Shown here: positions 5,248 through 63,828 of the stretch, in pieces
Layout: each line of letters begins with the position of its first letter
Position numbering within the stretch: the stretch's first letter is position 1
Source: a virus
Direction: 5' to 3' (one strand)
IMG/VR virus record: IMGVR_UViG_3300045988_060255
Length of the DNA: 64,000 nucleotides
The notes under the pieces: generated by a model
The model's input: the letters and a program-made list of their open reading frames with translations, nothing else
Database searches by the model: none
Told to the model about the DNA's origin: nothing
Position numbers and translations under genes: made by a program

Positions 5248-5988
5248 ATGAAGAAAAAGATTATTGCATTAGTTTTATGTGGTGTCATGGCTCTGAGTGT
5301 TCCTGTATACGCCAAAGGTGGAAGTGTTTCACTCAGTTCTGATGAATTGCAAGTGCCAAAAACAGAGCAGAAAAAAGACAAAAAAGAGAGTAAAAAGAAA
5401 AAGAACCAAGATATTACCGTAACACAAAGCGGTTGGACTATTCAGACAAGTGATTATGATAACGACCGATACGTTGCATATGGAGCTAAGGTTACTAACT
5501 CTAGTTCTAAAAAATATGGATATGTAACTTTAAATATTGTCGTAAAAGATGCTAACGGTAAAATATTAAAGAGCACTGATGATACATTTTCATCTATTGT
5601 TCCGGGAGATACTGTATTTTCGGCAGATAAAATTCACATTGGTCAATATGACCCTGCATCTGTCGAATTTTCTGTTTCATATGAAGATTCAGACTTTTTA
5701 GAGTCCGTTTCTGGCGACTCTGGAACGGATGCTTTTTCATTGTCAAACTTATCTGAAATGACAGACGAATACAGTTATACCACAATTACCGGTGAGATTG
5801 AAAGCGAAGCCCCTGATAGCTGCACTTCCGCTTGCATGACTGTTATTCTTAAACAAGGTGATGATATTGTCGGCGGTTTTTATGGTTATGTTGACGTGAC
5901 AAGTGGCGAAACAACAGCTTTCGAAATCTCTGATTATGATCTACCAGAACATGATAACGTAGAAATTTCAGCACGTCCAGCATTTTAA
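5248..5988 (+). CDS. secreted protein with signal peptide (246 aa)
   Basis: GGGAGGA RBS. MKKKIIALVLCGVMALSVPVYA signal, Lys-rich linker, then a beta-rich domain. Confidence 0.75.
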   Translation: MKKKIIALVLCGVMALSVPVYAKGGSVSLSSDELQVPKTEQKKDKKESKKKKNQDITVTQSGWTIQTSDYDNDRYVAYGAKVTNSSSKKYGYVTLNIVVKDANGKILKSTDDTFSSIVPGDTVFSADKIHIGQYDPASVEFSVSYEDSDFLESVSGDSGTDAFSLSNLSEMTDEYSYTTITGEIESEAPDSCTSACMTVILKQGDDIVGGFYGYVDVTSGETTAFEISDYDLPEHDNVEISARPAF

Positions 5989-14342: not shown

Positions 14343-14409
14343 AATCATCCTCCCGTCTATTTATAAAATAAAAGAGCACATGAGCTGTGACACTCATGCA
14401 CTCTGGTTG

Positions 14410-14850: not shown

Positions 14851-17800
14851 CTACCTTTCAAATAATCCGAATCCATTGCGGTTTCTGAACTGTTCGTTTT
14901 CCTCTTGCAAATATCCGACTAAGTGACCATCTGCATAAATTGCCATGCCTTTGACAGCTTCCCGGATAACCTGCGCGATATTCTGATTGTTGTCGAATGT
15001 GTTGTTACTGATTGCAATTACTTCACGGCGAATATCGTCACCAAAAGTACCATTCGCAGATACCGGCTTCTGATACATTCTGGCAGTCGGAACAGCCTTT
15101 ATATTGGCTTCCATTTGTGGGAGCTGAATGCCCTGTATAGATGTGCTTATATCCCCGATTGTAGAATGTAATGCCGGAATCATATTCTGCATACCTATCT
15201 GGAAGCCCTGCATGGTGTAGCCGCCAAGTTCTTCAAATACCTGAGATGGGCTGTGAATTTTGAGAACTTTGCGAAACGTATTTGATATATTTTGTGCGAT
15301 CTTTTGCACATTTGCATAAAGTTGTTGTGCCGCTCCTACAATTCCATTATTTAAGCCAATAATAGAGTTCCAACCGATATTATACAGGTTTCCAATGGAA
15401 TTGCTGATTCTGCTTCGGATTCTTCCGAACCATGTGAACGACGCAGAAAAGCCCGGCTCTAATCCGTTTCGGAATCCTTGACCGCAGTATTCTGCAAGCT
15501 GCTTGAACCATCTGGACGGAGAGTGGGAGTCTACTGCTTCCTGCGCAGGGGCTTTTACGCTGTTATTCATTAGGTCAAGAATCGAAGTCTTTGTGCTTTC
15601 TTTCTTCCCGTTAATTCCAGACTGTAATCCCTCTGCAATGTTGCTTCCAAGGGTTTTACCGCTTGATTTCGCAGTTTCTTCTGCATCTTTTGCAGATGAT
15701 TGAATTGTTGAGTTAAGCTTTTCAGTGACTTTGCTGCCGTTCTGCTCAATCCCACTACCTACGGCAAGAATCTGATTCTTTCCGAGTTCCGTAACTAATT
15801 CAAAACCAGAATTGTTATCCAGAACGCCGTTGATTGCCCCCTGCAGAGTTGAATCCATTGTACTTTGTAGAGTACTTTCATAGTCAGAAATACCTTTTCC
15901 AAACTGCACCATCTGTCCGTTTGCCAAAGTATAGTAACCGTTATCGTCCGGCTCTAATCCCTTTGCAATTTCCTGATAAATCTGTAATGCTTTTTCGCCG
16001 AGAATCTGTTTTCCATTTTCCCAGATACCACCCATTTCATCAATTGCATTTGCCGTATCTGTTACCAGAGTTGCAAAGTCAACGGTCTGGATAAGTGTCT
16101 GGAATCCCGTAAGCTGTTCTGAGATATCCTCAAACGACACATTGTTAATCCGATCAGCCATATTTGAAAACTGATTAGAGGATGTTTCCGCTGTATCTCC
16201 AAGGTCTTTGACTGGTTTGTTTACTCCTGCTATCGCATTCTCGAAATCTTCGGACGAAATTCCAAGATTATTAAGCTTAAGTTCAAGTTCAAATAACGCC
16301 TGTTCTGTGCTATATCCGTTATCTTTTAGCTCGGAAAGGAATGTTAATAAAGGATATGCTTGTTCGCCTGAAATCTGGCTTGCGTGAACCAAACCGAGAA
16401 TAGCATCTTCATACTCCTGAAATACCTTTAAATCGTCCTCTGTCAGTTTATCTCCGACTCCGAATATATCTTTCATCCATTCGTTGATAGCACCGGTAAA
16501 ATCTCCTTTTTGATATCCGAATACATTATCTTCCAAAAACTCTCCAAAAGTTTTATCTTCGCCGCCGAACAGATTGACGCTTATCCATTTTCCAAGGTTG
16601 AAACCTGCCATTGCAGTTCCTAAGACAACCATACTGTCTGCGAGTCCTGCTACAAGTGTAGAACCTAGTCCAGAGCCAAAGAATGTCTGCAATGCACCAC
16701 TGGCTGTGGAAAGAACCGTTCCTAACCCACCGAAGATTGTTCTGAGTGCACCGATAGAGCTAACTACATTGTATATGTTTCGAGCAAAATTAATGCTCCC
16801 TCTTATAATAAAAAACCGTGCTAGAGCTTCGCCAAGAGCTTCTATCTGCTTATCGTCAAGCTTTCCTAAGGCTTTTGCGAAAGCATCTAAGGCGCTTACT
16901 AATGCGTTAATCAGAGGGGCGCCGATATCGTTCAGCATTATATCGAAAAAGCTGATAAACCCATCTGCGAATCCCTCGGCAAATGGCTGGAATACATCCC
17001 ATACATCACCGATTGTTTTTATTAACGAATCCCAATTAATATTTTTGATGAAATTCACAATTACGTCTTTAAGATTCCCGATTCTTGTCCATAACCCGTC
17101 CCAATCAACATCAATCACTCCAAATTTATCAAGTGCGGCAACAGTAAGACCAAGTCCTGCCGCTATCGAAGCATATGGATGCGCTGCTAACATGGTGATT
17201 CCTTTGCCTATCACTCCTTCTTTACCGAAAATGCCACCGAACCATGTAAGTCCTTTAAATGCTACAAAAGCTGTCAGGAGCTGACCAAGGAAATAGCCGA
17301 TAGATTGTGCCTGTTCTGGCGAAAATGTTGCGATAAACTCTTTGAACCTGTCAACCAGATCAGGAAGTTTATTAACTCCATCTGCCGCCTTGTCAAAAAA
17401 ATCATCGAAGAAATCAAGTAATCCTGTTCCGACATTCTCAGCAAATGGCTCTAATACATCCCATAACTGTGCAAGGGAAGCATTGATTTTGTCCCAATTG
17501 ATCTTTACAAGAAAATCATTGAAAGCATTAATTAATCGCGGTAATCCCTTTTCTCCTAATGTCCACTTTCCAAGTGGAACTAAAAAGTGTTTCCAGAAAT
17601 CTTTTAATGCTGTCCATGTGAAATCTCTGAGTTGTTTCAATCCATTGTTCCAGAGATTTTTTAGTGCTTTTGTGGTAGGTTCTGCGACTTTTGCAAGTTT
17701 CTTAAATGTGTCTGTAACTTTATTTGCGAATGCCATAGCCTTATTTTCCATGGAATTGTAAGCGGCATCCCATTTCTTCTGGTATTCGTTCAAAAGTTTA

Positions 17801-20800
17801 TCCAGTGCATCATTGAGGATTCCTGCGTCAATTGCAGATGTGTCAATTTTTGGCGCTTTAATTTTAGAATTTGCAAGGTCAGACAGAGAACTATCGTCTT
17901 TGCTCATAATTTCAAGTTCATCATAGGATGCGAGGAACTGTTTTAATTTTTTTGCGCTCTTAGTCGCATCTTTCAGATTGTTATTTGTATCTTTTGTAGC
18001 ATCATCTACGTCCGAAATTCCAGAATCGTCTATGGAATCAAGTGCATTCGAGAGATTTTCACTTCCGCCACCGATAGAACCGAACATTTTTCCGATTTTG
18101 GTATCAACTCCAAGAAGCGAACCAATGTATGTCAAAAGTCTCTGGAATGCGATTACAAGACCATTGATATATGGCAACACTGCCGCAACTACAGGCATAA
18201 AGATGTTCCCTAATGCTCTGGCACAGGATACTAAGTTTGCACGAAGTATACGTAACTGGTTGGCTGGCATATTTATCGTATTTGCCATATCCGCCCATGC
18301 GTACCGGGTGGAATCCAGTATCACTATTGTTCTCAGCATTGCCTTGCTTGCTTGGTCCATATTAGAAACAGACGTTTGTATACCAAGATTTGCCGCATAT
18401 TGCTGTAAGTTTGCCACACGAATGTTTGCACCATATTTGTCTACAGCACGGCTCATACCTACTAATCCAGAGGACAAGTTCTCATAAACTGTGCTAAAAT
18501 CAAGATTCTTAACAGATGCAAGGTCAGCACCGATCATGGTTAATGCATTCGACAGTTTTAATGCCTGCTCAGAAGTCGTTCCCATAGATGATGATAACTG
18601 CGCAAACTGTCCTTGATAATTCAAGAGCATGGACGGATCCATACCGAGTGATTTACCTGATTTATTTGCGGTCAAAATCGCATTATCAGAAACATCGAAC
18701 CCAGACATTTTGGATGTAAGTTCTCTAGCTCTATTACTAAATGAATTTGCGTAAGCTTCCGCAGAATCATACCCTGCTTCTGACCAAGTCTCTCCCGTTT
18801 TATCCGCTACCTGGCGGAATGCTGCTTGAAAGTAGTTGTAATCTTCGAGAAAATTCATGGAACTTTCAATTGCGCTTCCAAATTTTCCAACAACAAATTT
18901 CAACGTCCAGAATTTTGCCACCAGAGACATGATGCTAGGCAAACTTTTCTTTGCCTTGCTTCCTACACTTCCAACGGCGTTTGCAAGTTTTCTGACCTTT
19001 CCTGTAGAAGTACCCGCACCCTGTCCTAATCTGGAAAATGCGCCTGCGGTAGACCTTGCCGCTCTACCAGCATTTGCCCCAGAATTTGCCAACTGAGCAA
19101 TGGCCTGCGTCATTTGAATTGTACTGCTACTGATTCTAGGAGCGGTACTCATCGTCTGGAAGAATGATTTTAAGCTATTTGCCAGATCATTAAGCTGAGT
19201 TGCTGTCTTTCCAGTTTTATCACCTGCATTTGCCAACTGAGATATTGACTGAACAAATGTATTAATTGGCTGAGAAATATTGCCTATTTCAGAGAATGAG
19301 CCTACGATTTTTTCAAGTTCTTCACCAAGTTTCGGGAGCTTTGATGCAACTGCATCAATAGAACCACCGGCATTCGCTAATCTTGACAGTGAAGAAACAA
19401 ACCGGTTCACATTGTTTGATACATCTGGAATACTGCTAAGACCAGATAATTCGGAAATCATGTTCTGAATCTTTCCAGACACATCACCTGTGGAATTTAT
19501 TGTTTCGTTCAGTCTGCGGATTGCATTTACGAATGAGTTTAATCCGCTGTCTTTCAGATTAAGACTTCCAAGCGTGCTCATGGACTGAGTGAACTGCTGT
19601 AACTGGCTATTTACTGTCGATAAATCCAGACCGTTCAATTTTGCTTCTATATTGTTCTTGAGCTCATCCGTATTAATTGAGAGATTTACTTTTACCGGGT
19701 CATAGGTAAGCGTGGATGCCTTGTTGATGGCATTTCTAATATCTCTGGCAATCTTTTCTTCATTAATCTTTACGTCAATTGGAATCTGACCGTTTGCAGA
19801 CTCCATGGCAGACGCAATATTTCTTTGAATTGAGGCACCGAGTTGCGTGCCTAACTCATTTACCGAGCTGTATACCCTGTCCGATGCCATTGCTGCATCT
19901 GAACCAGACAAAGCCTGAATTGATATTGGTTTGATGGAATCCCTTACTTTTTTGAGGTTTTCCAAGACAGTTTTTAACTGTTCCGCATCGTTTACCGTAT
20001 CCTTGGGAATTAATGTAGGAAATTTTTCTGCCAGTTCGCCCCATGCAGAATCGAGGTTAATTCCTTTTGTTGCATCGACGGTAATATTTCCAAGGTGCTG
20101 TTGAAGTAATTCTCTGAACTCGCCTTTTCCAACATTGAATTTAAGCATATCGGAAACATAAATTTTCTTACCTTTAAAATAATTGTAAAAATCCTGCCAT
20201 TCCTGTTCGGCACCGTCCAGATAACTTCCGAGATTGGATTTTACGACTTTCCCGCTCTGCTCAATGCTTTTTGCAATATCATCCAGAGTCTTTCCCCAAT
20301 CACCGGCTGTGAAGTTTTGTCCGTCAAATGAATTTGTAAGCTGCTGTGCCAACAAATCTATCTGTCTTTGAAGTTTGGAAGCGGCACCGCCTTTTAATTC
20401 AAACGCACTTGCAAGCTGTTTGGATAATGCAGATGCGTCTATTCTGGTAGTCTCTATAGATTTCTCAACAGAATATTTCAATTTTTCGGACATATCCGCT
20501 GAATTAATCTCTACATTTACTTTGAGATTCTTGTTTTCAAGATTGCTCAAATTCACTTTACTGAGACGTTCGAGCTGTGCGGCCATGCTATTCAACTTAC
20601 TTGTATCAATACTTTTGATAGATTGCACGGCATAACTGAGAGTACCGATAGATTTAGAAAAATTCCTCATCAAGCCTACGCTTTTGGACATTAAGCTGTC
20701 TAATCGGTCGAATTTATTGCACAAATCATTGATTGATCTTGACGCACTGGAAACGTCACTGCTGACTTGTATCGCCAAGGTATCAATCGTATTGTCCGCC

Positions 20801-20802
20801 AT
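14851..20802 (-). CDS. tail tape measure protein (1983 aa)
   Basis: Size, position after the G/T chaperones, helical repeat-rich sequence with hydrophobic central segments. Confidence 0.9.
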   Translation of the reverse strand: MADNTIDTLAIQVSSDVSSASRSINDLCNKFDRLDSLMSKSVGLMRNFSKSIGTLSYAVQSIKSIDTSKLNSMAAQLERLSKVNLSNLENKNLKVNVEINSADMSEKLKYSVEKSIETTRIDASALSKQLASAFELKGGAASKLQRQIDLLAQQLTNSFDGQNFTAGDWGKTLDDIAKSIEQSGKVVKSNLGSYLDGAEQEWQDFYNYFKGKKIYVSDMLKFNVGKGEFRELLQQHLGNITVDATKGINLDSAWGELAEKFPTLIPKDTVNDAEQLKTVLENLKKVRDSIKPISIQALSGSDAAMASDRVYSSVNELGTQLGASIQRNIASAMESANGQIPIDVKINEEKIARDIRNAINKASTLTYDPVKVNLSINTDELKNNIEAKLNGLDLSTVNSQLQQFTQSMSTLGSLNLKDSGLNSFVNAIRRLNETINSTGDVSGKIQNMISELSGLSSIPDVSNNVNRFVSSLSRLANAGGSIDAVASKLPKLGEELEKIVGSFSEIGNISQPINTFVQSISQLANAGDKTGKTATQLNDLANSLKSFFQTMSTAPRISSSTIQMTQAIAQLANSGANAGRAARSTAGAFSRLGQGAGTSTGKVRKLANAVGSVGSKAKKSLPSIMSLVAKFWTLKFVVGKFGSAIESSMNFLEDYNYFQAAFRQVADKTGETWSEAGYDSAEAYANSFSNRARELTSKMSGFDVSDNAILTANKSGKSLGMDPSMLLNYQGQFAQLSSSMGTTSEQALKLSNALTMIGADLASVKNLDFSTVYENLSSGLVGMSRAVDKYGANIRVANLQQYAANLGIQTSVSNMDQASKAMLRTIVILDSTRYAWADMANTINMPANQLRILRANLVSCARALGNIFMPVVAAVLPYINGLVIAFQRLLTYIGSLLGVDTKIGKMFGSIGGGSENLSNALDSIDDSGISDVDDATKDTNNNLKDATKSAKKLKQFLASYDELEIMSKDDSSLSDLANSKIKAPKIDTSAIDAGILNDALDKLLNEYQKKWDAAYNSMENKAMAFANKVTDTFKKLAKVAEPTTKALKNLWNNGLKQLRDFTWTALKDFWKHFLVPLGKWTLGEKGLPRLINAFNDFLVKINWDKINASLAQLWDVLEPFAENVGTGLLDFFDDFFDKAADGVNKLPDLVDRFKEFIATFSPEQAQSIGYFLGQLLTAFVAFKGLTWFGGIFGKEGVIGKGITMLAAHPYASIAAGLGLTVAALDKFGVIDVDWDGLWTRIGNLKDVIVNFIKNINWDSLIKTIGDVWDVFQPFAEGFADGFISFFDIMLNDIGAPLINALVSALDAFAKALGKLDDKQIEALGEALARFFIIRGSINFARNIYNVVSSIGALRTIFGGLGTVLSTASGALQTFFGSGLGSTLVAGLADSMVVLGTAMAGFNLGKWISVNLFGGEDKTFGEFLEDNVFGYQKGDFTGAINEWMKDIFGVGDKLTEDDLKVFQEYEDAILGLVHASQISGEQAYPLLTFLSELKDNGYSTEQALFELELKLNNLGISSEDFENAIAGVNKPVKDLGDTAETSSNQFSNMADRINNVSFEDISEQLTGFQTLIQTVDFATLVTDTANAIDEMGGIWENGKQILGEKALQIYQEIAKGLEPDDNGYYTLANGQMVQFGKGISDYESTLQSTMDSTLQGAINGVLDNNSGFELVTELGKNQILAVGSGIEQNGSKVTEKLNSTIQSSAKDAEETAKSSGKTLGSNIAEGLQSGINGKKESTKTSILDLMNNSVKAPAQEAVDSHSPSRWFKQLAEYCGQGFRNGLEPGFSASFTWFGRIRSRISNSIGNLYNIGWNSIIGLNNGIVGAAQQLYANVQKIAQNISNTFRKVLKIHSPSQVFEELGGYTMQGFQIGMQNMIPALHSTIGDISTSIQGIQLPQMEANIKAVPTARMYQKPVSANGTFGDDIRREVIAISNNTFDNNQNIAQVIREAVKGMAIYADGHLVGYLQEENEQFRNRNGFGLFER

Positions 20803-27923: not shown

Positions 27924-28080
27924 GGCTTATCACCAGCGTCGCAGGGCAAGGAAACTCACCACTCTTGAGTGGTGGGAGGAATGCCCGTTTTAGCGACGCA
28001 TTTTCCTTTCTATAAATAAATATTGTTCTTCGCCAAAATGTATGTTATAATGTTTTTGGTGAAGAAAGTAGGTGCTATAT

Positions 28081-29208
28081 ATGGAACAGACAATTACGGC
28101 AAAACTTCAGATTTTAGTCAATCCTTCTGATAAACAGATACTCTGTGATACCATGAAGGCTTATTCTGATGCCTGTAATTATGTATCCGAATTCATATAC
28201 AAGACTCATAATCTTAGCCGTTATAGCGTGCAGGAAGATACTTATCATCAGGTACGGGAAATTTATGGTCTCCGTTCCCAGATGGCTGTTTCTTGTGTAC
28301 GCACAGTTATAGCCAAATACAAAACCATTATTAAAAATCAGAAAGAATGGATAAAACCTACATTTAGACTGCCTCAGCTAGACCTCGTATGGAATAGGGA
28401 TTATTCTCTTAACACCAAAAACAATATTTTCTCTGTAAATACACTAAGCGGTCGCATCAAGGTGTCTTTCTATAAAAATGGTTTTGAACGATATTTTGCC
28501 GATGACTGTAAATTCGGAACGGCTAAACTTGTTAATAAGCACGGTATGTTTTTCTTACATATACCTGTAACATACGAAATTTCTATGCTCAATAAGTCAG
28601 AAGTTTCTAATGTTGTCGGTGTAGACCGTGGGATAAGATTTCTTGCTGCTACATATGACAGCAAAGGAAAATCTGTATTCTACGATGGTAATATAATCAA
28701 GCAAAAACGTGCTCATTATAAGGCTTTGCGTAAACATTTACAGCAAGTCGGTACTCCGTCATCCCGTAGACGAATAAAAGCTATTGGTCAACGAGAAAAC
28801 CGTTGGATGCAAGATGTAAATCATTGTATTTCTAAGGCACTCGTTGAAAGCAATCCTGATGGCACTATGTTTGTTATCGAAGATTTAACAGGAATCCGCT
28901 CTGCTACTGAAAGAGTGAAAGTAAAGAACCGTTGTATATCTGTATCATGGTCTTACTATGATTTAGAGCAAAAATTGTCTTACAAAGCCTTAAGACATCA
29001 TCAGCTTGTAGAAAAGGTTAATCCTGCTTATACAAGCCAAGCATGTCCAAAATGCGGTCATACCGAAAAAGCGAATCGCAATAAGAAAATACACTTTTTC
29101 TGCTGTAAAAATTGCGGTTATAAATCGAATGATGACCGCATAGGAGCTATGAATCTGCATCGTATGGGAATAGAACTTTTAGTACCTGATGCAGTTGCTA
29201 CGGAGTAA
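28081..29208 (+). CDS. tnpB: TnpB RNA-guided nuclease (RuvC + Zn finger)
   Basis: RuvC motifs VGVDRGIRF, FVIEDL, SNDDRIGAMN. Zn finger CPKCGH...CCKNCG. Confidence 0.9.
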   Translation: MEQTITAKLQILVNPSDKQILCDTMKAYSDACNYVSEFIYKTHNLSRYSVQEDTYHQVREIYGLRSQMAVSCVRTVIAKYKTIIKNQKEWIKPTFRLPQLDLVWNRDYSLNTKNNIFSVNTLSGRIKVSFYKNGFERYFADDCKFGTAKLVNKHGMFFLHIPVTYEISMLNKSEVSNVVGVDRGIRFLAATYDSKGKSVFYDGNIIKQKRAHYKALRKHLQQVGTPSSRRRIKAIGQRENRWMQDVNHCISKALVESNPDGTMFVIEDLTGIRSATERVKVKNRCISVSWSYYDLEQKLSYKALRHHQLVEKVNPAYTSQACPKCGHTEKANRNKKIHFFCCKNCGYKSNDDRIGAMNLHRMGIELLVPDAVATE

Positions 29209-40203: not shown

Positions 40204-41406
40204 TTATTCACTTGCTTTGAAGTTATATATAGGTTTGATAATATCAACTATTTCTACGGTATCTTTGATGTTATCAATAATTTCTTGCGGTGGTTTGTAA
40301 GCCATAGGGCTTTCATCAATCGTAGATTTCTGAACGGATGTTGTATATATCCCATTCATAGACTTTTTAAATTCTTCTAACGATATGTTTTCTTTTGCTT
40401 TTGATCGGCTCATGATACGTCCTGCACCATGCGGGGCTGAACAATTCCAGTCCTCGTTTCCTTTCCCGAATGCGATAATGCATCCGTCTCGCATATTCAT
40501 TGGGATAAGAACTTTCTCACCATATTTAGCTGATATTGCACCTTTGCGAACAATGTTTGTATCGTGGTCAATATAATTATGAATTGTATCAAACCATGTA
40601 TTTCTTTGGAATGTCCACTTCATAGTGTAAAATATAGCACTCTGTATACATCGTCTGTTTATTCTTGCAAATTCTTGACAAATTTTCATATCATGCAGAT
40701 ATTGTTTTCTGTGTTCTCCTGTTAAGTAACACAATTCTTTCGGAATACCCAGTTTGTCTGGCTTCCATTTTCGTTTTAATTCGTCAATACCATTTTGGAT
40801 TTCCTTGTGTCTGCCAGAACGCTTGTATTCTTTCACCAATTTTTGTATTTCAGTTTCGAGCTTGTCTGTACCCTGCATGTCTTCTATGGCAATTTTTTGA
40901 TATATTTCAGCTACTTGTTTTCCAAGATTGCGACTTCCAGTGTGAATTACAAGATAATTTATCCCTTTTGAATCAGTGTCAACTTCAATAAAATGATTTC
41001 CGCCCCCAAGCGTACCAAGGCTCCTGCGAATCCATTCGATATTTTTAAGCTGATGGAAGCAGTGAAGTTCTTCTAATTCTTCAAAATTTATGATTTCGTC
41101 ACGTACATTTCTTCCTGCCGGAACATTGTTTCTTATTGCTTTGTCAAGGTTTTTTAAATCTATTGTCCCCACATCGGTAGGAATTTGTGTTGTAAGCATT
41201 CCACATCCAATGTCCACGCCAACAATGTTCGGAATTACTTTATCTCCGAGATCGGCAGTAAAGCCAATTACACATCCTGCTCCTGCGTGAACATCTGGCA
41301 TGATTCGTACTTTACATTCAGAAAATGCAGGCTGTTTTATCAATGTATAAATCTGATTTAACGCTTCTGGTTCGATGTTTCCTGTAAATATCTTCAAGTC
41401 ACTCAT
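40204..41406 (-). CDS. rtcB: RtcB RNA 3'-phosphate ligase
   Basis: MPDVHAGAGCVIG...GVDIGCGM...GGGNHFIE...HTGSRNLG...APHGAGR motifs. Confidence 0.9.
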   Translation of the reverse strand: MSDLKIFTGNIEPEALNQIYTLIKQPAFSECKVRIMPDVHAGAGCVIGFTADLGDKVIPNIVGVDIGCGMLTTQIPTDVGTIDLKNLDKAIRNNVPAGRNVRDEIINFEELEELHCFHQLKNIEWIRRSLGTLGGGNHFIEVDTDSKGINYLVIHTGSRNLGKQVAEIYQKIAIEDMQGTDKLETEIQKLVKEYKRSGRHKEIQNGIDELKRKWKPDKLGIPKELCYLTGEHRKQYLHDMKICQEFARINRRCIQSAIFYTMKWTFQRNTWFDTIHNYIDHDTNIVRKGAISAKYGEKVLIPMNMRDGCIIAFGKGNEDWNCSAPHGAGRIMSRSKAKENISLEEFKKSMNGIYTTSVQKSTIDESPMAYKPPQEIIDNIKDTVEIVDIIKPIYNFKASE

Positions 41407-44250: not shown

Positions 44251-44322
44251 TCGGAAAGGCAGGAATCGAACCTGCGGCACATAGCTTACAATGCCATTGC
44301 TCTACCACTGAGCTACATTCCG
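44251..44322 (-). tRNA. tRNA-Thr(UGU)
   Basis: Hand-folded. Acceptor CGGAATG/CTTTCCG (1 mismatch), D arm GCTC-AGTGGTA-GAGC, anticodon loop AUUGUAA, T arm GCAGG-TTCGATT-CCTGC. No encoded CCA. Confidence 0.85.
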
Positions 44323-44613
44323 TACCGCCTGTAACGGCCAGTTCTCCGAAAAGGAACTGGGTTGATTTCCACATCACATGCTTTCGGACCAGATGAAAAT
44401 ATCCAGATAAGCATTAACCTTTCCATCGTAAAACGCATGAACTAGATGGTTCTTTTAGAATTGCCGACTATCACTTCTCACGGCCCGTGGTCTCATCTCT
44501 CTAAAAAGTTTTTTACGCAAACGCCTAGTGAGTTGTACGTTTACGCTCATGCGTAAACCCACCTGAGACATAGACTACTTGTATATAAACAGCTTAACTC
44601 TAAGCGGATTAAA

Positions 44614-44682
44614 GCGGAACGCCCGGAATCGAACCGGAGACCAGAGCGCGACTCTGTCAGTTTTCCACTAGCGTACATTCCA
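44614..44682 (-). ncRNA. tRNA-like RNA with canonical acceptor and T arms but aberrant D and anticodon regions
   Basis: Acceptor TGGAATG/CGTTCCG, T arm TCCGG-TTCGATT-CCGGG. The centre folds as CAGAG-TCGCG-CTCTG (5-nt loop) rather than a 7-nt anticodon loop. Confidence 0.6.
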
Positions 44683-45012
44683 CATAACCCGGAAACCCCG
44701 GGTTAGCAATATGTTTATCGTGTTATGCTTTCCACTAGGCTGTTTTATGCCGTGCCAGCCCCACGGAGTTATTTCGGATTTGGATATTCATGTCATTGTG
44801 GATAACGACGAAACCTTTTATATGCCTCTTGAAAACTTCCTGTCCTCAACGTGCACCTATTGACGACAATTTAACTCAGAGACTGTGCCGAACGGGGAAT
44901 TATCTTCATTGAACAGGCTGTGCCGTTACACACCTTTCATAAAAATAATCCACATACACTCATTCAGCAGTTTTTTCTGTCCATAAAACGGATAGACAGC
45001 ATATGGAAGAAA

Positions 45013-45085
45013 TGGAAACTACAGGACTCGAACCTGTGACTTGTCGGTTATGAGCCGACCGTTCTGCCAACTGAACTAAGTTTCC
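45013..45085 (-). tRNA. tRNA-Met(CAU), elongator-type (or Ile2 if lysidinylated)
   Basis: GGAAACT-TA-GTTC-AGTTGGCA-GAAC-G-GTCGG-CTCATAA-CCGAC-AAGTC-ACAGG-TTCGAGT-CCTGT-AGTTTCC-A. Confidence 0.9.
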
Positions 45086-45287
45086 TAAGCAGAGGGTTAT
45101 TGCAGTTCAAGAGTAACTTCCTCTGCTGTTGCGATTCTTGCCCTCGCAGTCGCAACAAAGGGTCTAAATGCTGTTCTACATAAGTAGAGTCCATCCGGGG
45201 CATTTGAAGCCCCTTTAATCATCCCCGTTGGGATAGATGGAACCAATTCGGAGGGGAACTATATCATGGCTAAACAATATAGTCCGA

Positions 45288-45359
45288 CTGGGCTAGCGGG
45301 ATTCGAACCCGCGAATACAGCAGTCAAAGTGCTGTGCCTTACCACTTGGCGATAGCCCA
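45288..45359 (-). tRNA. tRNA-Gln(UUG)
   Basis: TGGGCTA...CAGCA-CTTTGAC-TGCTG...GCGGG-TTCGAAT-CCCGC-TAGCCCA-G. The U1-A72 pair is typical of bacterial tRNA-Gln. Confidence 0.9.
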
Positions 45360-45649: not shown

Positions 45650-46162
45650 TTATTCTGCAAAAATCCAATCCTCTGCTAACATATCTGCCTGAGTTGCAAG
45701 CCATCCCATCTGTACGCCAGATGTTCCGACAAAAGCAATGGCTTTATTTCCGATTGCATCGTGTTCGCAATTTATAATCTCATTATCAGCAGTCTTATAT
45801 GAAATTCCAGTGGCGAGCTGAATGTACTGTTTCTTTCCGTTCCAACCTTTTCTTGCCACTTTAAGTCCGCGCTTCATGTACTTAATTGCATCCCCGAAAG
45901 AGAATGTTGCTTCACCGCCGAGTACCTGGCAGTTTGTTTCGTCCGCAATAATCCATTCATCAGACTGCATATTCATAGTTGTATATTCCACCATCTGCGT
46001 CTCACGAATATCAAGTAATTCTCCTTTTTCACCGTTATCCTGTGGGCGGCACTGAATCATAATTGTTTCTTTTTCTGCATCCCAATACCAATATCCGCCC
46101 CATGATGGAAACTTTACCTTGGCTCCCTGTTTCATAAGTTTGAATGCTTCTGAAAATTTCAT
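45650..46162 (-). CDS. tandem DUF2829 (Tad2-like) protein (170 aa)
   Basis: Two halves: FSEAFKLMKQGAKVKFPSWGG...SDEWIIADE and FSFGDAIKYMKRGLKVARKGWNGKKQYIQL...GWLATQADMLAEDWIFAE. Confidence 0.75.
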   Translation of the reverse strand: MKFSEAFKLMKQGAKVKFPSWGGYWYWDAEKETIMIQCRPQDNGEKGELLDIRETQMVEYTTMNMQSDEWIIADETNCQVLGGEATFSFGDAIKYMKRGLKVARKGWNGKKQYIQLATGISYKTADNEIINCEHDAIGNKAIAFVGTSGVQMGWLATQADMLAEDWIFAE

Positions 46163-48537: not shown

Positions 48538-49086
48538 TGTATCACCTCCAAAAATTGAAATAAAAAAAGACGACAAAAACACGTTCGCAGATACAATCTG
48601 GGACCTTTCTAAATCCCTTTCTTCTTTCCGATCTGCTCGGTTTTAATCGTCTTAAATAGTCTTATTATTCTTATTGCCTTTCGGCTTATTCAATTGTTAA
48701 TTCTGTTTTATCATACTTTTATATTACTTGTCAACAGTCTATTTAATTTTATTTTTACCGTTACATTACTCTTATTAACTCTATATATCTATACGGTACT
48801 GTATAGTATGTATATTAATAAACTCTAGGTCTTTAGAAGAATCTTGGAGGGGATTATAAATACAGTTATTATATATTTATACACCTTGTAATACGGTCGT
48901 TTTCCGGCGTATAACGCACAAAAAGCCAGACCTTCCGGCACCTTGTCCGGCGTGATCTGGCTGCTAAATTCTTATTCTTTTCGCGCTCTGGCTGTCGCTC
49001 CCCTCCTGAGTTCCGTCGCCTGTCGTTGATTTTATTTTATCCACATCGGTTTTAAAAATCAAGTCCCAAAATAAAAAAATTTTTGC

Positions 49087-49115
49087 TTGACAACTTCGAC
49101 AGTTTTATGATAAAT
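49087..49115 (+). promoter_or_regulatory. promoter TTGACA-17-ATAAAT
   Basis: Read directly. No ORF/RBS follows. Confidence 0.6.
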
Positions 49116-49121
49116 GTATTT

Positions 49122-49218
49122 TAACAACTTCGGCGGCGGGGTTGTTCCCCTCACTCATTACGCCGCCAGAATAAGACAGCAAAAGCCCCCGGGATTATCT
49201 CTCAGGGGCTTATTTTGT
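49122..49218 (+). ncRNA. candidate ~97-nt sRNA (promoter-hairpins-terminator unit)
   Basis: Stem GGCGGCG(49132-38)/CGCCGCC(49161-67) enclosing GGGG-ttgtt-CCCC. Terminator AAGCCCC-N15-GGGGCTT followed by ATTTTGTGTCTTT. Confidence 0.45.
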
Positions 49219-49318
49219 GTCTTTCCAAAATGGAAATATTAAAATTTGCACTTATTCAGTACTATTTCAAATTTACATTCAATTACCTCAGTAATTGTTG
49301 CCTAAATAATACTATAGA

Positions 49319-50008
49319 TCAGATGAAAAAGCAAGGATTGTTTAAATTATCACAATCTGCAATTACTTTCATTCCTCTGTCTAAATATTTCACCGGAATG
49401 TCATTAAATCTTCGTTTTCCATTTTTGATCACGTAGTCTTTGTGAATTGTGTAAACTGTTCCGGGTGTTTCTGCCGTAGCCGGTGCATAAGTGCACATAT
49501 CAAGCGTCATTTCCTGCGCTGGCAAAACGTCAACAACCTGCACGTCGTCAATTCTTATCAAGTCCTCATGTCGTCCCAGGCTTGGGAATGTCCGCGGGTT
49601 CAGAATCTTTCTACAGATCACATCAACTTCTTCCTGATTTTCCGGCATAACATGCAATCTCAGGTCCAGATCAGACACAACGCTTTCATAAATCGGCGTA
49701 TTGACCCAGCCCACAAAAGAATCCCCAGATTTTACCCTGACTGGAAAACGCTGCTTAAACTCCTCTGTCTCTGATCCTGCGACAGCTCCGCCGCGCCACC
49801 TCATGCAGATTTCTGGCTTGTTCATGACTCCGTTTCCGGCTACGGATATTTCCATATCATGCCAGCTATCCCACCGACAAAGAAAATGGACCATACCGGC
49901 AATTGTAGAAAAAGGCGGGAGCGGGTATGTTTCGCCCCGCTTGCCATTCCATCCCGGTATTGAAAACCGGACGGTATCCATATGTCCTTGTATCATTACT
50001 GCTTTCAT
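49319..50008 (-). CDS. orphan Cas5-like (RAMP) protein, 229 aa
   Basis: N-terminal ...TVRFSIPGWNGKRGETYPLPPFSTIAGMVHFL and C-terminal ...FPSLGRHEDLIRIDDV match the remembered Cas5 (type I-B/I-C) signature. No other cas genes or array in the window. Confidence 0.6.
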   Translation of the reverse strand: MKAVMIQGHMDTVRFSIPGWNGKRGETYPLPPFSTIAGMVHFLCRWDSWHDMEISVAGNGVMNKPEICMRWRGGAVAGSETEEFKQRFPVRVKSGDSFVGWVNTPIYESVVSDLDLRLHVMPENQEEVDVICRKILNPRTFPSLGRHEDLIRIDDVQVVDVLPAQEMTLDMCTYAPATAETPGTVYTIHKDYVIKNGKRRFNDIPVKYLDRGMKVIADCDNLNNPCFFI

Positions 50009-50199
50009 GCGTTCATTTCCTTGTCTGCTCGGAATCCTTCAAGAATATCGCCATACAGACTTTCTGGTATTTCTTCCTCCATCAACGGCTGTCTTTCTTC
50101 AAGTTCTGCGTCAAGGCTTGCGTCGATGTCTGCAAGCGCCTGCTCTCTGCCGAATCCCATTGCTACAACTTCATTTAATAAATCAATTGTTTTCTTCAT
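50005..50199 (-). CDS. acidic small protein (64 aa)
   Basis: Track ORF. ATGA-coupled to the Cas5-like gene. Strongly acidic C-terminal half. Confidence 0.6.
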   Translation of the reverse strand: MKKTIDLLNEVVAMGFGREQALADIDASLDAELEERQPLMEEEIPESLYGDILEGFRADKEMNA

Positions 50200-50219: not shown

Positions 50220-50423
50220 TTAAATTTCTTCTGTGTAGGAAATTCTAAGAGTATTGTCCTCAACTTCCCAGAAATAATTTTTACTGTCATATTTTTCGAG
50301 GTTTCTAAACTCCTCGATTTCTCCACTTGTCAGTGTCATTTCTACGGTCACCGGTTCGGTTCCCATCTTCCCGGTTTTCATTGCTTCTTTCTCAATTGCT
50401 TGATCAATTTTTCTTTCTAGCAT
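50220..50423 (-). CDS. hypothetical protein (67 aa)
   Basis: Track ORF. Confidence 0.6.
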   Translation of the reverse strand: MLERKIDQAIEKEAMKTGKMGTEPVTVEMTLTSGEIEEFRNLEKYDSKNYFWEVEDNTLRISYTEEI

Positions 50424-50435
50424 CTTTTTTCCTCC

Positions 50436-50639
50436 TTATGCCCGAGCATATGAAATAAAATTCTGCTCGGCGGTTTCGTCAACAAGTTCCGCCGGGATTC
50501 TCACCCAGTTCTCACCCAGAGAATTTATAAAATCCTCTTTCTGAGCTTCTGTGCCGCACAGCCAAGCTGCTGTAACTTTGGCACATCCGAAACTTTCGGA
50601 ATTATTCCGCGCCACCTGTTTTAATTCAAATTCTTTCAT
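50436..50639 (-). CDS. hypothetical protein (67 aa)
   Basis: AGGAGGAG RBS before ATG 50639 (MKEFELKQVARNN...). Confidence 0.6.
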   Translation of the reverse strand: MKEFELKQVARNNSESFGCAKVTAAWLCGTEAQKEDFINSLGENWVRIPAELVDETAEQNFISYARA

Positions 50640-50649
50640 TTTTCTCCTC

Positions 50650-50880
50650 CTAGTTAATCCCGGTAACTTTAACACGGGTTTGTAAAATATCTTCCGCAGC
50701 TTCCAGAATCTCGAAATCAACAATGTACTCCTCACCGTTCTGGTATACGGCGATTGCTCCGGACTCCAAAAGTTCCTCGCCGTCCCCGTTTCCATCCCAG
50801 AGCTGACCGAAGAAATATTCTTTACCAGCTTCAATTGTGTCCTCGGAACAGAGGACATATGACAATGTGTTTAATTTCAT
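50650..50880 (-). CDS. hypothetical protein (76 aa; possible longer form from ATG 50964)
   Basis: AAGGAGAAA RBS before ATG 50880 (MKLNTLSYVLCSED...). Confidence 0.55.
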   Translation of the reverse strand: MKLNTLSYVLCSEDTIEAGKEYFFGQLWDGNGDGEELLESGAIAVYQNGEEYIVDFEILEAAEDILQTRVKVTGIN

Positions 50881-51064
50881 GTTTATTTTCTCCTTGACTT
50901 TTCCCCTGCGCTGACATATAATTTCGATATCAGCAATTTTTATTGTTGTTTCCCGGTGTTCCATGATTTCACTGGGAGTCGTCCCGATCAACGGCGAGAC
51001 GTTGAGTTGAAATATGTTAAAATAAGATTGTAAGGTCTTATCAAGCGGGGCGTAACTGTTTTAG

Positions 51065-51397
51065 TTACGCCTTTTCGTTGCCATTCAGGTAATTGATATA
51101 CCCTTGTCGAGCAGCTCCCTGCATACACTCTTCGGGAGTTTCTTCCCGGATTTCTCCAGAGTTTTCAAAATATGCAATTCGTCCGGTGCTCTTCTGTACC
51201 ACTTCATTTACTGATAATGTGCAAAAACTTTCGCATTTTTCGCGAAATGCCTCAGCCCGCTCGACAAGATTAATTAATCTTTCAAGCTGAGGAATTGAAA
51301 AACATTTCAAGTCCTCGTCTGTGATGACGTCTCTAACGTACCACTGCAAGTTTTCGGCAGTTTCATTTTTCTTGTTAAGCAAATCCTCTTTTCTCAT
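51065..51397 (-). CDS. hypothetical protein (110 aa)
   Basis: Track ORF. Confidence 0.6.
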   Translation of the reverse strand: MRKEDLLNKKNETAENLQWYVRDVITDEDLKCFSIPQLERLINLVERAEAFREKCESFCTLSVNEVVQKSTGRIAYFENSGEIREETPEECMQGAARQGYINYLNGNEKA

Positions 51398-51439
51398 TTT
51401 GTCCTCCGTTCCGCCCCTCCCCGGGGCTGTGTGATTGGT

Positions 51440-51958
51440 TCAACTCATTCTTTTTAAGATTTCTTCTTTTAACAGTCTGGATTCAAAAAAATCATTATTA
51501 GTCGCATATTCATAAAGCAACTTTTCGTTTGAAAGCTTCAGCATATCGTAAACTTCTTGCTTTCTCTTTGATATTTTTTCTTGATCTTCCTGTACCCTTT
51601 TCAACCTTGCGTCGACTACTTTTAATGTTTCGAGATTGTACAAATCTTCACCGTTCAAAATTCCGGATTTTATTAATTTGTACTCTACTAAATACATTTT
51701 ATTTCGAATTTCGTCATAATACAAATAGTTTGATTCATCAATAACTTTTACAATTTTAAAATCAAAGTCATCATTTTTCAAAATATCTTGTTGTATTGAC
51801 CTGTTATTGTGTTTTCCTCTTGCGATTTCTCCCTTGTGGACTTCCGCACGCTTTTTTAATTGTGTAGAAGAACCTATATATTTCTTTCCGGTTCTTCTAT
51901 TTGTTATTGTGTATACTCCGCATCGGTCTTTATCTGGAATATTGAATAAATCACTCAT
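51440..51958 (-). CDS. GIY-YIG nuclease-domain protein (172 aa)
   Basis: CGVYTITNRRTGKKYIGSSTQLKKRAEVHK... Confidence 0.7.
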   Translation of the reverse strand: MSDLFNIPDKDRCGVYTITNRRTGKKYIGSSTQLKKRAEVHKGEIARGKHNNRSIQQDILKNDDFDFKIVKVIDESNYLYYDEIRNKMYLVEYKLIKSGILNGEDLYNLETLKVVDARLKRVQEDQEKISKRKQEVYDMLKLSNEKLLYEYATNNDFFESRLLKEEILKRMS

Positions 51959-52033
51959 TCTGTAACCACTTCCTTTCTATGGTTACAGTATATATTATTA
52001 GTGCTTAATTGTCAATAGTTATTTGTGCTTAAT

Positions 52034-52237
52034 TTACATTTTTTTCATTCTATCCATTTTATCAAGTTCTGCAAGAATTAATTCCCTTGCGAAAGCGTTG
52101 GTTTTTAATCCGTATGCGTTTATTCTGTCGAGTGTTCCCTGCGGTAAGATCACATTTATTCTATCCTTATTTTTCATACATTTCTTTACTGCTTCTCTAT
52201 TCTTTATTGCTTTTTCTTCTACTGTTAATTCTGCCAT
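52034..52237 (-). CDS. ribbon-helix-helix DNA-binding protein (67 aa)
   Basis: AAAGGAGGAA RBS, ATG 52237. ...KDRINVILPQGTLDRINAYGLKTNAFARELILAEL. Confidence 0.65.
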   Translation of the reverse strand: MAELTVEEKAIKNREAVKKCMKNKDRINVILPQGTLDRINAYGLKTNAFARELILAELDKMDRMKKM

Positions 52238-62864: not shown

Positions 62865-63107
62865 TTACTCACTCGCTTCACTTCCTCTCAGCATCAGGCT
62901 CAAAGTGTTATATCCCGGACAAGTTCTGACCCCATTCTTGGTATCTCTTAGCAGGACACAGTACGGATATAATGCCATGACCTCATAGACGTGTTCTGTG
63001 GTGTCTTCACCGCGCTGGTCTATGTATTTGAAGCACTTTCCGGGTCTAAGAAAGTATCTTGCGCATACATACGCTTTTGTCCCGAATCTTACGCTTGCAC
63101 TACTCAT
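62865..63107 (-). CDS. hypothetical protein (80 aa)
   Basis: Track ORF. Confidence 0.6.
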   Translation of the reverse strand: MSSASVRFGTKAYVCARYFLRPGKCFKYIDQRGEDTTEHVYEVMALYPYCVLLRDTKNGVRTCPGYNTLSLMLRGSEASE

Positions 63108-63828
63108 TTGTACGCCCCTCCATTCCTAAATCAAACAATGTGATCTGTGATCTAAATTCTTCTAACCGCTTACAAGCGTCATTGTAATAATTTTCATTAA
63201 TTTCATACCCGATATATTCAAGTCCACATTCTTCATAGGCAATCAATGAGCTTGCGCTCCCCACATGGGTATCAAGAATCTTCATTCCTTTCTGCAGATA
63301 TTTCTGGCATATCCAACGATATAAATTTACAGGTTTTTGAGTTGGGTGGATTCGCTTTTCGTTCAGTTTTTTGTTGCCCTGCTGTATTGTTCCTTCAATT
63401 ATTGATTTTCCTTGAAACATTCCTCTCCACATATAGCGAAAAATGTCAGCTCTTCTTGTAAGACTGCAGTAAGCAACTTCTGCGTCTGATTGATCTGAAC
63501 CATCATTGCATTTATCCCAGATTATCAAGCCACCCGCCATTGGGTAATCAAAGTAATTGCATCCCCAGATAATCTGATTCTTTGATACTCTGAATAGTTG
63601 TTTAAAATATTCTCGATCTGGTGGTTTATTATCCCAACCATAATTCTTATAGCCACCATCAGGAACATAAATGGAACTTCCATTTTTCTGCTTTACATAT
63701 TTACTACGATTCTTACCGCCGTGTTCTTTGATTCCGTATGGTGGGTCTACGACTGCCACATCGAAGTAATTATCTGGAAAGTCCGGGAGAAAATTCATGC
63801 AGTCACCGCAAATAAATTCTCTTTGCAT
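63100..63828 (-). CDS. DNA N6-adenine/N4-cytosine methyltransferase (beta-class)
   Basis: DPPYGI catalytic motif, followed later by the SAM motif ILDTHVGSASS. Confidence 0.85.
   Translation of the reverse strand: MQREFICGDCMNFLPDFPDNYFDVAVVDPPYGIKEHGGKNRSKYVKQKNGSSIYVPDGGYKNYGWDNKPPDREYFKQLFRVSKNQIIWGCNYFDYPMAGGLIIWDKCNDGSDQSDAEVAYCSLTRRADIFRYMWRGMFQGKSIIEGTIQQGNKKLNEKRIHPTQKPVNLYRWICQKYLQKGMKILDTHVGSASSLIAYEECGLEYIGYEINENYYNDACKRLEEFRSQITLFDLGMEGRTNE

Follow-up and report, generated by a model that had tools for sequence, protein, structure and literature searches.

The window analysed here is the whole 64,000-nucleotide (nt) stretch of virus record IMGVR_UViG_3300045988_060255 from IMG/VR, and the features at issue are two neighbours on its minus strand: a cas5-like gene at 49319-50008 and, directly behind it, a short element at ~49223-49297 shaped like a single CRISPR (short palindromic repeats, clustered and regularly interspaced) RNA, or crRNA. 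The gene is a 229-residue open reading frame (ORF), present with the sequence quoted in an earlier reading of this DNA (the original prediction); its product is a divergent, hookless homologue of type I-B Cas5 and a putative Cas5-mimic anti-CRISPR. The window belongs to a temperate siphophage of human-gut Lachnospiraceae: matches of its ORFs to an SPP1-type portal, capsid E, terminase, a CHAP lysin and a tyrosine integrase identify a temperate tailed phage, and the original prediction had also called it a phage. Contigs of ~79 kb from human-gut metagenomes encode the exact protein as well, as do integrated prophages bordered by host genes, and prophage junctions were seen in three relatives (L011, L016 and L017; L numbers denote retrieved loci); the L011 prophage is carried by genome GCA_964261755.1. 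A lone viral Cas5 is a further, already catalogued member of a published class, and ordinary on that count. What is new is that in phages of gut Lachnospiraceae the Cas5 mimic is almost always directly followed by a crRNA-shaped RNA that keeps the handle bound by Cas5.

The assignment to Cas5 rests on profiles, a structural model and conserved residues. PADLOC models of type I-B Cas5 (Cas5b) match the protein at 7.7e-23 and 2.3e-19, NCBIfam TIGR01895 (type I-B Cas5b) at 8.7e-19, and six more Cas5 models at E-values up to 1e-3. The family scores lie under the curated Cas5 cutoffs (68 bits against 96.7 bits for TIGR01895; 17.3 bits, E 0.0048, against 23 bits for Pfam PF09704), yet the homology is significant, and these matches indicate true type I-B Cas5 homology, not chance. 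An AlphaFold2 model built on a 31-sequence alignment has a mean predicted local distance difference test score (pLDDT) of 91 and a predicted template-modelling score of 0.83; in Foldseek searches of the PDB its top ~30 matches are all Cas5 chains of I-E, I-B, I-A and I-C Cascades, at probability 1.00 and template-modelling (TM) scores of 0.45-0.56. The window protein is thereby modelled with the Cas5 RAMP (repeat-associated mysterious protein) fold. The signature motifs that the original prediction named are real: Y28-P-L-P-P, S34-T35, G38, H41, G145 and D149 are invariant over 31 viral and operon-encoded cellular Cas5b sequences, and the LGRHED strand (G145..D149) is kept. Both its type I-B Cas5 assignment and the profile and fold searches it had proposed came out in favour of Cas5. 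The viral clade also has a conserved block of its own, RW(K/R)GG..ETxEFKxRFPVRV, and no PHROG family was found for the window protein. Outside the clade analysed, the BFVD entry A0A8D9PGM8, a 275-residue 'uncharacterized protein [Bacteriophage sp.]' with a TM score of 0.86 to the model and 30% identity, is another phage Cas5-like protein.

Behind the gene lies an ORF-free gap of 735 bp in the window and of ~750-900 bp in all close relatives. The original prediction had found no repeat array in the 64 kb, and this did not hold: a degenerate one-spacer CRISPR-like unit, oriented like the gene, begins 21 nt past its stop codon. Read along the coding strand, it consists of a hairpin, a handle, a spacer-like stretch, a truncated repeat and a terminator. 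Hairpin 1 (CAATTAC-TGAG-GTAATTG, 49280-49297, minus strand) stands directly 5' of the handle, is present in the minimum-free-energy fold and replaces the 5' part of a CRISPR repeat; it is presumed to be a Cas6-type processing hairpin. The handle, GAATGTAAAT (49271-49280, minus strand), has the very letters with which genuine type I-B repeats end at their 3' side. In type I-B systems the 3' end of the repeat becomes the 8-nt 5' handle of the crRNA, which is bound by Cas5. The spacer-like segment that follows, TTGAAATAGTACTGAATAAGTGCAA (49246-49270, minus strand), is 25 nt long with an internal 5-bp hairpin, and the truncated second repeat, ATTTTAATATTTCCATTTTGGAA (49223-49245, minus strand), corresponds to the first ~22 nt of a I-B repeat, with a small CCA..UGG hairpin and no 3' handle. 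By sequence, these are three repeat-related pieces that would suffice for one crRNA-shaped RNA. The 149-nt region 49170-49318 of the minus strand folds at -40.3 kcal/mol (z = -4.5).

The terminator (49173-49223), which the L002-type clade conserves, is a hairpin rich in G+C and carrying U-runs on either strand; it is predicted to end both the cas5-like/mini-array transcript and a small convergent transcript from the plus strand. The latter would start from a plus-strand promoter (TTGACA-N17-ATAAAT at 49088) and run as a ~100-nt hairpin-rich RNA (49088-49220) into the bidirectional terminator. Also in the gap (region 48925-49115) are a GGAACTCAGGAGGGG block, likewise conserved, and, at 48939-48925, a second terminator for the minus strand. 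The plus-strand promoter, the block and the second terminator are all kept in the clade at 57% identity and have no Rfam match; an Rfam E-value scan for a known RNA family over the whole 735-bp gap returned chance matches only.

Genuine type I-B repeats from operon-linked arrays provide the reference for the repeat-derived pieces (GTTTTAACTACTTATTATGAAATGTAAAT in Listeria, GTTTATAATTGAGCAGAATGTAATGTAAAT in Pectinatus); their 3' ends read ...GAAATGTAAAT (Listeria, L001), ...TAATGTAAAT (Pectinatus, L009) and ...TGGAATGTAAAT (83 arrays). An array-shaped scan of species genomes added at least 120 arrays, many from Lachnospiraceae, with 30-nt repeats such as GTTTTAATAGAACCATAyTGGAATGTAAAT. When 83 genuine repeats were slid over the window, the best 5'-half match (18/22) fell at 49224-49245 and the best 3'-half match (11/12) at the handle, 26 nt apart, on the strand of the gene and in the right order. 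The motif GAATGTAAA alone occurs twice in the window against 1.46 expected. The genuine arrays have a period of 65-67 nt, hence spacers of 35-37 nt with 30-nt repeats, whereas the extracted viral spacers measure 18-32 nt; the spacer-like segment is almost invariant inside the window's clade and different in other clades.

The relatives are clearer than the window. The element stands at the same place in 79 of 80 IMG/VR loci (47 of 48 distinct sequence variants), with the handle 26-59 nt after the cas5-like stop codon in 79/80 viral relatives. The stem of hairpin 1 covaries among them (CAATTAC/GTAATTG, CAGTTAC/GTAACTG, CGTCA/TGACG, CATCA/TGATG), while the GAATGTAAA that follows it is fixed, and second units covary too (CAGGCG/GCCTG). 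In divergent sub-clades the units right after the stop codon are, to judge by their letters, unmistakable repeats: both units of L021 match a genuine repeat at 26/30 (null maximum 21), L099 at 26/30 (null maximum 23) and L020 at 25/30 (null maximum 22), with L018 marginal at 23/30 (null maximum 22). A consensus or extended -10 promoter was noted by eye between the stop codon and the first unit in the L002-type loci, L021, L020 and L099. In the window the search detected no separate promoter for the RNA element, which is therefore likely to be transcribed there together with the cas5-like gene.

The association was also examined from the side of the RNA. Of 101 viral loci with the RNA signature, six could not be judged and 14 have no cas5; in the other 81 a same-strand cas5-like gene ends 42-59 nt upstream of the RNA, which leaves 81/95 informative loci with the pair. 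Mini-arrays of the same repeat type that stand without cas5 were seen on IMG/VR contigs of 93-167 kb (L229, L256, L259, L276, L290, L294 and L316) and in L296, L251 and L279; a group of the phage contigs that carry them is 130-166 kb long. Their layout is a promoter, TTTAATAGACACATATTGGAATGTAAAG, a 22-nt spacer ATTAATTTATTATCAAGACATT and a truncated repeat, and their spacer seeds are similar to those of the cas5-linked units of L018, L020 and L099. A regular-expression scan for short-spacer mini-arrays in hosts was set aside, having returned mostly false positives. Such degenerate one-spacer units can escape screens in which a viral cas gene is dropped solely on the report of an array by a standard array finder.

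Homologues of the protein split into two groups, a viral clade and cellular Cas5b. Members of the viral clade are 227-231 residues long and 46-100% identical, and fall into clusters of 456 and 645 members; all those examined lie in phage or prophage DNA without cas neighbours. The cellular homologues are 26-35% identical to the window protein and include P0046 of Pectinatus (35%), whose gene belongs to a canonical cas6-cas8b-cas7-cas5-cas3-cas4-cas1-cas2 operon accompanied by a long array. In the tree, a long branch leads to the viral clade, which is monophyletic (neighbour-joining bootstrap 299/300). The gene of this clade is under strong purifying selection: the ratio of nonsynonymous to synonymous substitution rates (dN/dS) has a median of 0.127 over 879 pairs at a dS of ~0.39. 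It has also moved between phages, as it is found on at least five phage backbones. These two results rule out a decaying remnant of a phage CRISPR-Cas system. In the phage-record collection, tblastn gave only two matches, GenBank OR846720.1 (L001) and OR848150.1 ('Listeria phage LM 4-11-1 / 4-14-1', UNVERIFIED_ORG); both carry a complete type I-B operon and a 36-repeat array, and look like bacterial chromosome contigs filed as phage. They were rejected as AcrIB3-like genes, since the ORF lies within a full cas8b-cas7-cas5-cas3 operon beside the array and is a genuine Listeria Cas5b.

The gene is an orphan in the window and in its relatives. Models for cas6, cas7, cas8, cas3, cas1 and cas2 have no match among the 91 window ORFs, and the gene tables of ~100 viral loci with the cas5-like gene list no cas neighbour in any of them; this much of the earlier statement that nothing else in the 64 kb is cas-like stands, the remainder being qualified by a TnpB/Cas12f-like ORF and a Csx1-type match described below. 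The slots occupied by the gene are always accessory (a prophage-edge lysis cassette, a lysin-integrase interval or a place beside a serine recombinase), and small helix-turn-helix (HTH) or ribbon-helix-helix (RHH) genes directly precede it. These settings are a typical signature of an anti-defence or anti-CRISPR (acr) locus. In L020 (P0034 lineage, 1488-1952), the gene overlapping the cas5-like start has a weak precomputed Pfam match to AcrIC5, with an HTH_26 gene upstream; PADLOC has no match for that protein.

The original prediction was not aware of such a role for Cas5, and here it was overtaken by a published precedent. Type I-B immunity is inhibited by AcrIB3, a homologue of Cas5b that mobile elements of Listeria encode; the protein co-purifies with Cascade, target DNA is no longer bound in its presence, and over-expression of native Cas5 causes no inhibition (Katz et al., bioRxiv 10.1101/2023.06.24.545427). 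According to a 2026 review of the Nature 2024 version (PMC13131331), AcrIB3 displaces native Cas5, is without the 18-residue hook of Cas5 for Cas8b and has an extra 6-residue loop, and its activity is lost when the hook is restored or the loop deleted. The loop is predicted to contact Cas7. The same preprint lists 358 orphan viral cas genes from IMG/VR and proposes imprecise excision as the route by which viruses captured them. Five of the relatives retrieved here are present in its Table S3 as cas5 / CAS-I-B with matching coordinates: the proteins of contigs IMGVR_UViG_3300045988_035813, _103204 and _101626 are 90-92% identical to the window protein, and those of 3300045988_109905 and 3300006168_000014 are 42-48% identical. 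The predicted hosts of these relatives are Blautia_A and Oliverpabstia. The family is thus already catalogued as predicted orphan viral cas5. Table S3, a tblastn catalogue with ~48 viral cas5 loci, describes neither a function nor how the clades are structured, and it contains no analysis of the hook and no adjacent RNA element; the terms mini-array, solitary and Racr are absent from the preprint.

The two proteins can be compared directly with the AcrIB3 sequence from Table S2. AcrIB3 and the window protein are 34% identical over their full length and similar in length (237 and 229 residues); each is an orphan on a temperate mobile element, keeps the Cas5 N-terminal and LGRHED motifs, has lost the hook and stands in an anti-defence gene neighbourhood. 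The hook was measured as the number of residues between the conserved Y-x-P and G-T-x-Y anchors. Listeria Cas5b has 26; AcrIB3 has 8, missing exactly TENNSVHFKSHESSVGRD; the window protein likewise has 8, and the region aligned to TENNSVHFKSHESSVGRD is absent. Across the whole viral clade the count is 7-10, against 11-26 in operon-encoded cellular Cas5b. By alignment, the window protein shares the hook loss that the review reports as needed for inhibition by AcrIB3. At the site of the AcrIB3 loop, members of the window clade are longer than Listeria-type Cas5b by a 4-residue insertion, and several cellular Cas5b have the same. AcrIB3 is closer to cellular Cas5b (41-46%) than to the window clade (31-35%). 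The two also differ in host (Listeria against gut Lachnospiraceae), in the RW(K/R)GG block that sets the window clade apart, and in the downstream crRNA-like element and, in this phage group, an acidic 64-residue partner protein, neither of which is reported for AcrIB3. The activity of AcrIB3 has been shown by experiment, whereas the window protein is known from sequence and model. With canonical type I-B Cas5 (Cas5b/Cas5t; TIGR01895, PF09704), the window protein has in common the fold, the conserved motifs and the length; it departs from it in standing outside a cas operon, in its sub-cutoff scores, in lacking the hook and in its long separate branch.

The RNA has counterparts of its own. Shmakov et al. 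(2023) described regulatory mini-arrays upstream of cas6 in host I-B loci, the spacers of which are short and correspond in part to the cas6 promoter; phage copies, their spacers slightly shorter still, adjoin acr genes in Clostridium and Fusobacterium phages and were proposed to guide host Cascade to the cas6 promoter, shutting down cas expression (PMC10120712). The window element resembles them in having two repeat-like units, a shortened spacer in between and a better conserved handle-bearing unit. Unlike them, its clade has the 5' part of the first repeat swapped for an unrelated covarying hairpin; spacers of the host mini-arrays partly match the cas6 promoter, while for window-type spacers neither a host counterpart nor a promoter match was found in the loci searched; and cas5 is never mentioned by Shmakov et al. 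(PMC10120712), whereas here the RNA directly follows an orphan cas5 in most informative loci. Camara-Wilpert et al. (2023) described RNA anti-CRISPRs (Racr) and a bicistronic AcrIC5-RacrIC1 locus (PMC10651486). Like these, the window element would be a small RNA that mimics a repeat within the acr locus of a phage and is transcribed together with, or next to, the gene of an Acr protein, and the arrangement in L020, with its weak AcrIC5-family gene directly upstream of cas5, is a parallel to AcrIC5-RacrIC1. RacrIF1 acts through the part upstream of the Cas6 cut and has no 5' handle, so that Cas5f and Cas8f are excluded (PMC10651486). The window element, by contrast, keeps both handle and spacer-like segment, has the shape of a complete crRNA and is paired with a Cas5 homologue. 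No paper linking a viral cas5 with a mini-array in phage was found in a literature search that drew mostly on papers outside subscription journals.

A second, independent pairing of cas5 and mini-array may exist in the cultured Fusobacterium phage vB_FnuS_FNU4 (OQ808964.1; L223, 1831-3140). It carries a lone full-length Cas5b of 355 residues (PADLOC 1.6e-128), behind which come a terminator, a site resembling a promoter and, at spacings of 51 and 55 nt, three repeat-like units (CTAATnTAGTrATACAT). That these units are a true CRISPR repeat of Fusobacterium was not confirmed, as scanning metagenomes for array-shaped matches gave 0, and the two 55-nt units are 80% identical throughout, which is compatible with a plain tandem duplication. 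Should the pairing recur in this phage, a protein-RNA module would become experimentally tractable.

Because of the RNA element beside the gene, the picture changes from that of a lone subunit to that of a protein-plus-RNA module. Subunit mimicry or poisoning, as the original prediction suggested, is by analogy still the best-supported role for the protein; the RNA is what it had missed. The reading we favour, and consider reasonably probable, is a two-arm module directed against type I-B systems, in which an AcrIB3-like hookless Cas5 mimic would poison Cascade and a repeat-derived RNA would serve as a decoy or a regulatory guide. The setting of the RNA is that of an anti-CRISPR or anti-defence locus: it adjoins the Cas5-mimic gene, relatives have HTH/RHH genes and a weak AcrIC5-family gene upstream, and Tad2/Tad8 genes are close by. 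In the protein arm, the Cas5-derived protein, which keeps the fold and the Cas5b-invariant N-terminal motifs without the hook that holds Cas8b, would take the place of native Cas5 on crRNA-Cas7 complexes, as AcrIB3 does, and yield Cascades unable to engage target DNA. In the RNA arm, a short RNA shaped like a single crRNA would be co-transcribed with the gene or made from its own promoter. Cas6-type processing would place its 5' end at ...G|AAUGUAAAU or A|UGUAAAU. The RNA could then soak up host Cas6 and Cas7 as a Racr-like decoy, or steer host Cascade to repress the host cas operon as a regulatory guide of the Shmakov type. The two arms might act in parallel or jointly. What the sequences and the model show is the homology, the fold, the missing hook, the orphan state, the selection, the acr-like surroundings and the conserved position and repeat origin of the RNA, whereas anti-CRISPR activity, entry into Cascade and processing of the RNA are inferred. 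The scheme presupposes hosts with type I-B systems and repeats of the ...GGAATGTAAAT type. Type I-B systems are common in Clostridia and gut commensals.

Several observations weigh against this two-arm module. Were the mimic to keep each Cascade that it enters from binding DNA, a regulatory guide would be put out of action as well, which is a tension inside the combined model. The loss of the hook is suggestive, not diagnostic, because some genuine operon-encoded Cas5b also have short hook segments of 11-15 residues. A grouping of the viral clade with AcrIB3 received a neighbour-joining bootstrap of 150/300; this value, and the greater closeness of AcrIB3 to cellular Cas5b, make the window clade probably a separate or very old branch. 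On the side of the RNA, the clade to which the window belongs has degenerate repeat pieces, and each half-match in the window lies within the range of Markov-shuffled controls, so that the identification as a repeat depends on position, architecture and the clearer relatives. Several viral spacers hold conserved internal hairpins. A blastn-short search with 12 spacers found no protospacer in the window or ~300 loci, only chance-level matches, and no spacer match above chance was found in ~120 host array loci, among which the I-B locus of the true host is not represented. The P0035 lineage (L005-8) and L102 have cas5 without the RNA and 14 viral loci have the RNA without cas5; each part occurring alone in some lineages, neither strictly needs the other. 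Finally, the sample of viral loci comes mostly from two phage groups.

The strongest alternative, which we hold to be possible though unlikely, is a dedicated partnership in which the hookless viral Cas5 caps the phage's own handle-bearing RNA and nucleates host Cas7 and Cas6 on it. The resulting particle would be a phage-programmed Cascade-like complex, free of Cas8b and Cas3 or nuclease-silent, acting either as a high-affinity sink for Cas7 and Cas6, more efficient than either part alone, or to silence a particular target, for example the cas operon of the host, a different defence system, or a gene of the phage or of lysogeny. The tight, conserved adjacency on the same strand speaks for it, with a gap of only 26-59 nt, as do the retention by the RNA of exactly the part that Cas5 binds, unlike the handle-less RacrIF1 (PMC10651486), the retention by the protein of the N-terminal motifs invariant over Cas5b, and spacers that are conserved within clades and have seeds alike between clades (ATTAAnTT.. 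and TTAGAnTGTTAG). Against it stand the lack of a target among the sequences searched, the 14 loci with RNA but no cas5 and the two lineages with cas5 but no RNA, and the conserved hairpins inside several spacers, which are unusual for a guide; moreover, going by the 2026 review, a hookless Cas5 is expected to impair the DNA binding that silencing needs. If this partnership were true, it would constitute a protein-RNA anti-CRISPR, with a viral Cas subunit and a viral crRNA mimic as one unit. Joint action of the two parts would connect Cas-subunit mimicry with repeat-RNA mimicry or regulatory mini-arrays, anti-CRISPR strategies that have until now been described apart from each other. It would also account for the retention of a handle-binding subunit by phages, and would suggest a compact, programmable off-switch for type I-B systems.

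Two further explanations are less likely than either the two-arm module or the partnership. The Cas5 RAMP fold could have been exapted as a generic RNA-binding or RNA-processing protein for phage transcripts, or the gene and repeats could be inert leftovers, taken up beside a host CRISPR locus through the imprecise excision that Katz et al. propose as the origin of viral cas genes; scores below the curated Cas5b cutoffs and the clade's own RW(K/R)GG..ET.EFK.RFPVRV block fit such a history. Inert leftovers are nevertheless excluded by selection and spread, that is, by the dN/dS of 0.127, the hundreds of cluster members, the presence on at least five phage backbones and the covariation of the RNA hairpin, and the CRISPR handle and repeat kept beside the gene, together with acr-type contexts, point to a CRISPR-directed role and make exaptation improbable. 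Least probable of all is inter-phage warfare, in which the mini-array would guide host Cascade against rival phages or plasmids (superinfection exclusion) and the viral Cas5 would boost or bias guide loading: virus-borne mini-arrays in inter-viral conflict are an established category, cited in PMC10651486, and the phage is temperate (integrase, prophage junctions), but the spacers are short (18-32 nt against 35-37 nt in genuine arrays), near-invariant within a clade instead of diverse and unmatched in ~300 phage and host loci, the terminal repeat has no handle, and hook loss predicts that interference is lost, not gained.

With the cas5-like gene as its final ORF, a minus-strand operon extends from a perfect sigma-70 consensus at 52291-52263 (TTGACA-17-TATAAT, 12/12), upstream of a 67-residue first gene. 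As had been noted from the start, the cas5-like gene is coupled through ATGA to a strongly acidic 64-residue protein (50005-50199, minus strand): the two ORFs overlap by 4 nt (tcat at 50005-50008 of the plus strand, ATGA on the coding strand), and the arrangement suggests translational coupling. The 64-residue protein has an isoelectric point of 4.06, with 17 Asp and Glu against 6 Lys and Arg, and is kept alongside the cas5-like gene in the clade at 57% identity; ORFs of 63-65 residues with the identical overlap are present in L002, L003, L004 and L011. Profile searches gave it no family match, and no similar chain was found in the PDB. An AcrIB4-like protein and a mimic of the Cas8b C-terminus were both rejected for this partner, as no similarity was found (E 0.97 and 2.3), nor anything in the PDB. 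The upstream operon genes (50220-52237, minus strand), whose order was compared with relatives, encode mostly acidic proteins of unassigned function. From the promoter onwards they are the 67-residue first gene (52034-52237, no family match), a GIY-YIG nuclease (51440-51958, GIY-YIG match 5.2e-07) and genes for proteins of 110 (51065-51397), 76 (50650-50880), 67 (50436-50639) and 67 (50220-50423) residues, all four without a family match and, like the others, on the minus strand.

On the other side of the cas5-like gene, a Tad2-like (Thoeris anti-defence 2) protein of 170 residues with two Tad2-like domains is encoded 3 kb downstream, between it and the terminase (45650-46162, minus strand; Pfam PF11195 1.6e-24, above cutoff). 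Relatives, L014 and L011 among them, carry Tad2-like or Tad8 genes in the same variable region. The Tad2-like gene marks the interval from the cas5-like gene to the terminase as an anti-defence region; across this phage group, that stretch holds Tad2-like or Tad8 anti-Thoeris genes, RtcB and tRNAs. In the window, an RtcB RNA ligase lies directly upstream of the terminase together with tRNA genes Thr-tgt, Met-cat and Gln-ttg (40204-41406 and 44251-45359, minus strand). A counter-measure to host tRNA-cleaving defences is a plausible role for RtcB and the three tRNA genes. A search of phage records returned none similar to the region at the DNA level.

Two cas-like matches lie elsewhere in the window. 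A TnpB/Cas12f-like ORF of 378 residues (28072-29208, plus strand) matches PADLOC Cas12f at 4e-35 and the Pfam families OrfB_IS605 and Cas12f1-like TNB; it interrupts, in opposite orientation, the block of structural genes on the minus strand. It is probably an insertion of the IS605 family, possibly with a guide RNA of its own. One of the 91 window ORFs matches PADLOC PDLC01039, 'Csx1 - found elsewhere', at 1.2e-27; the ORF was not located, as the 23 ORFs run singly were all negative.

Further features of the phage include two giant tail-region proteins on the minus strand, one of 1516 residues (9798-14348) with five Big_3 and BspA-type LRR_5 domains and one of 1983 residues (14851-20802) with no Pfam match. 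A tandem repeat of a 27-bp unit (TCCGGTGTTGGTTGCCGCTGACCGGTT), in 5.4 copies at 96% identity, occupies positions 1-146. Pfam Response_reg and LytTR domains fall together on one window ORF, probably 5248-5988 on the plus strand, an ORF assignment that was not confirmed. An orphan type II DNA methyltransferase is encoded at 63100-63828 on the minus strand.

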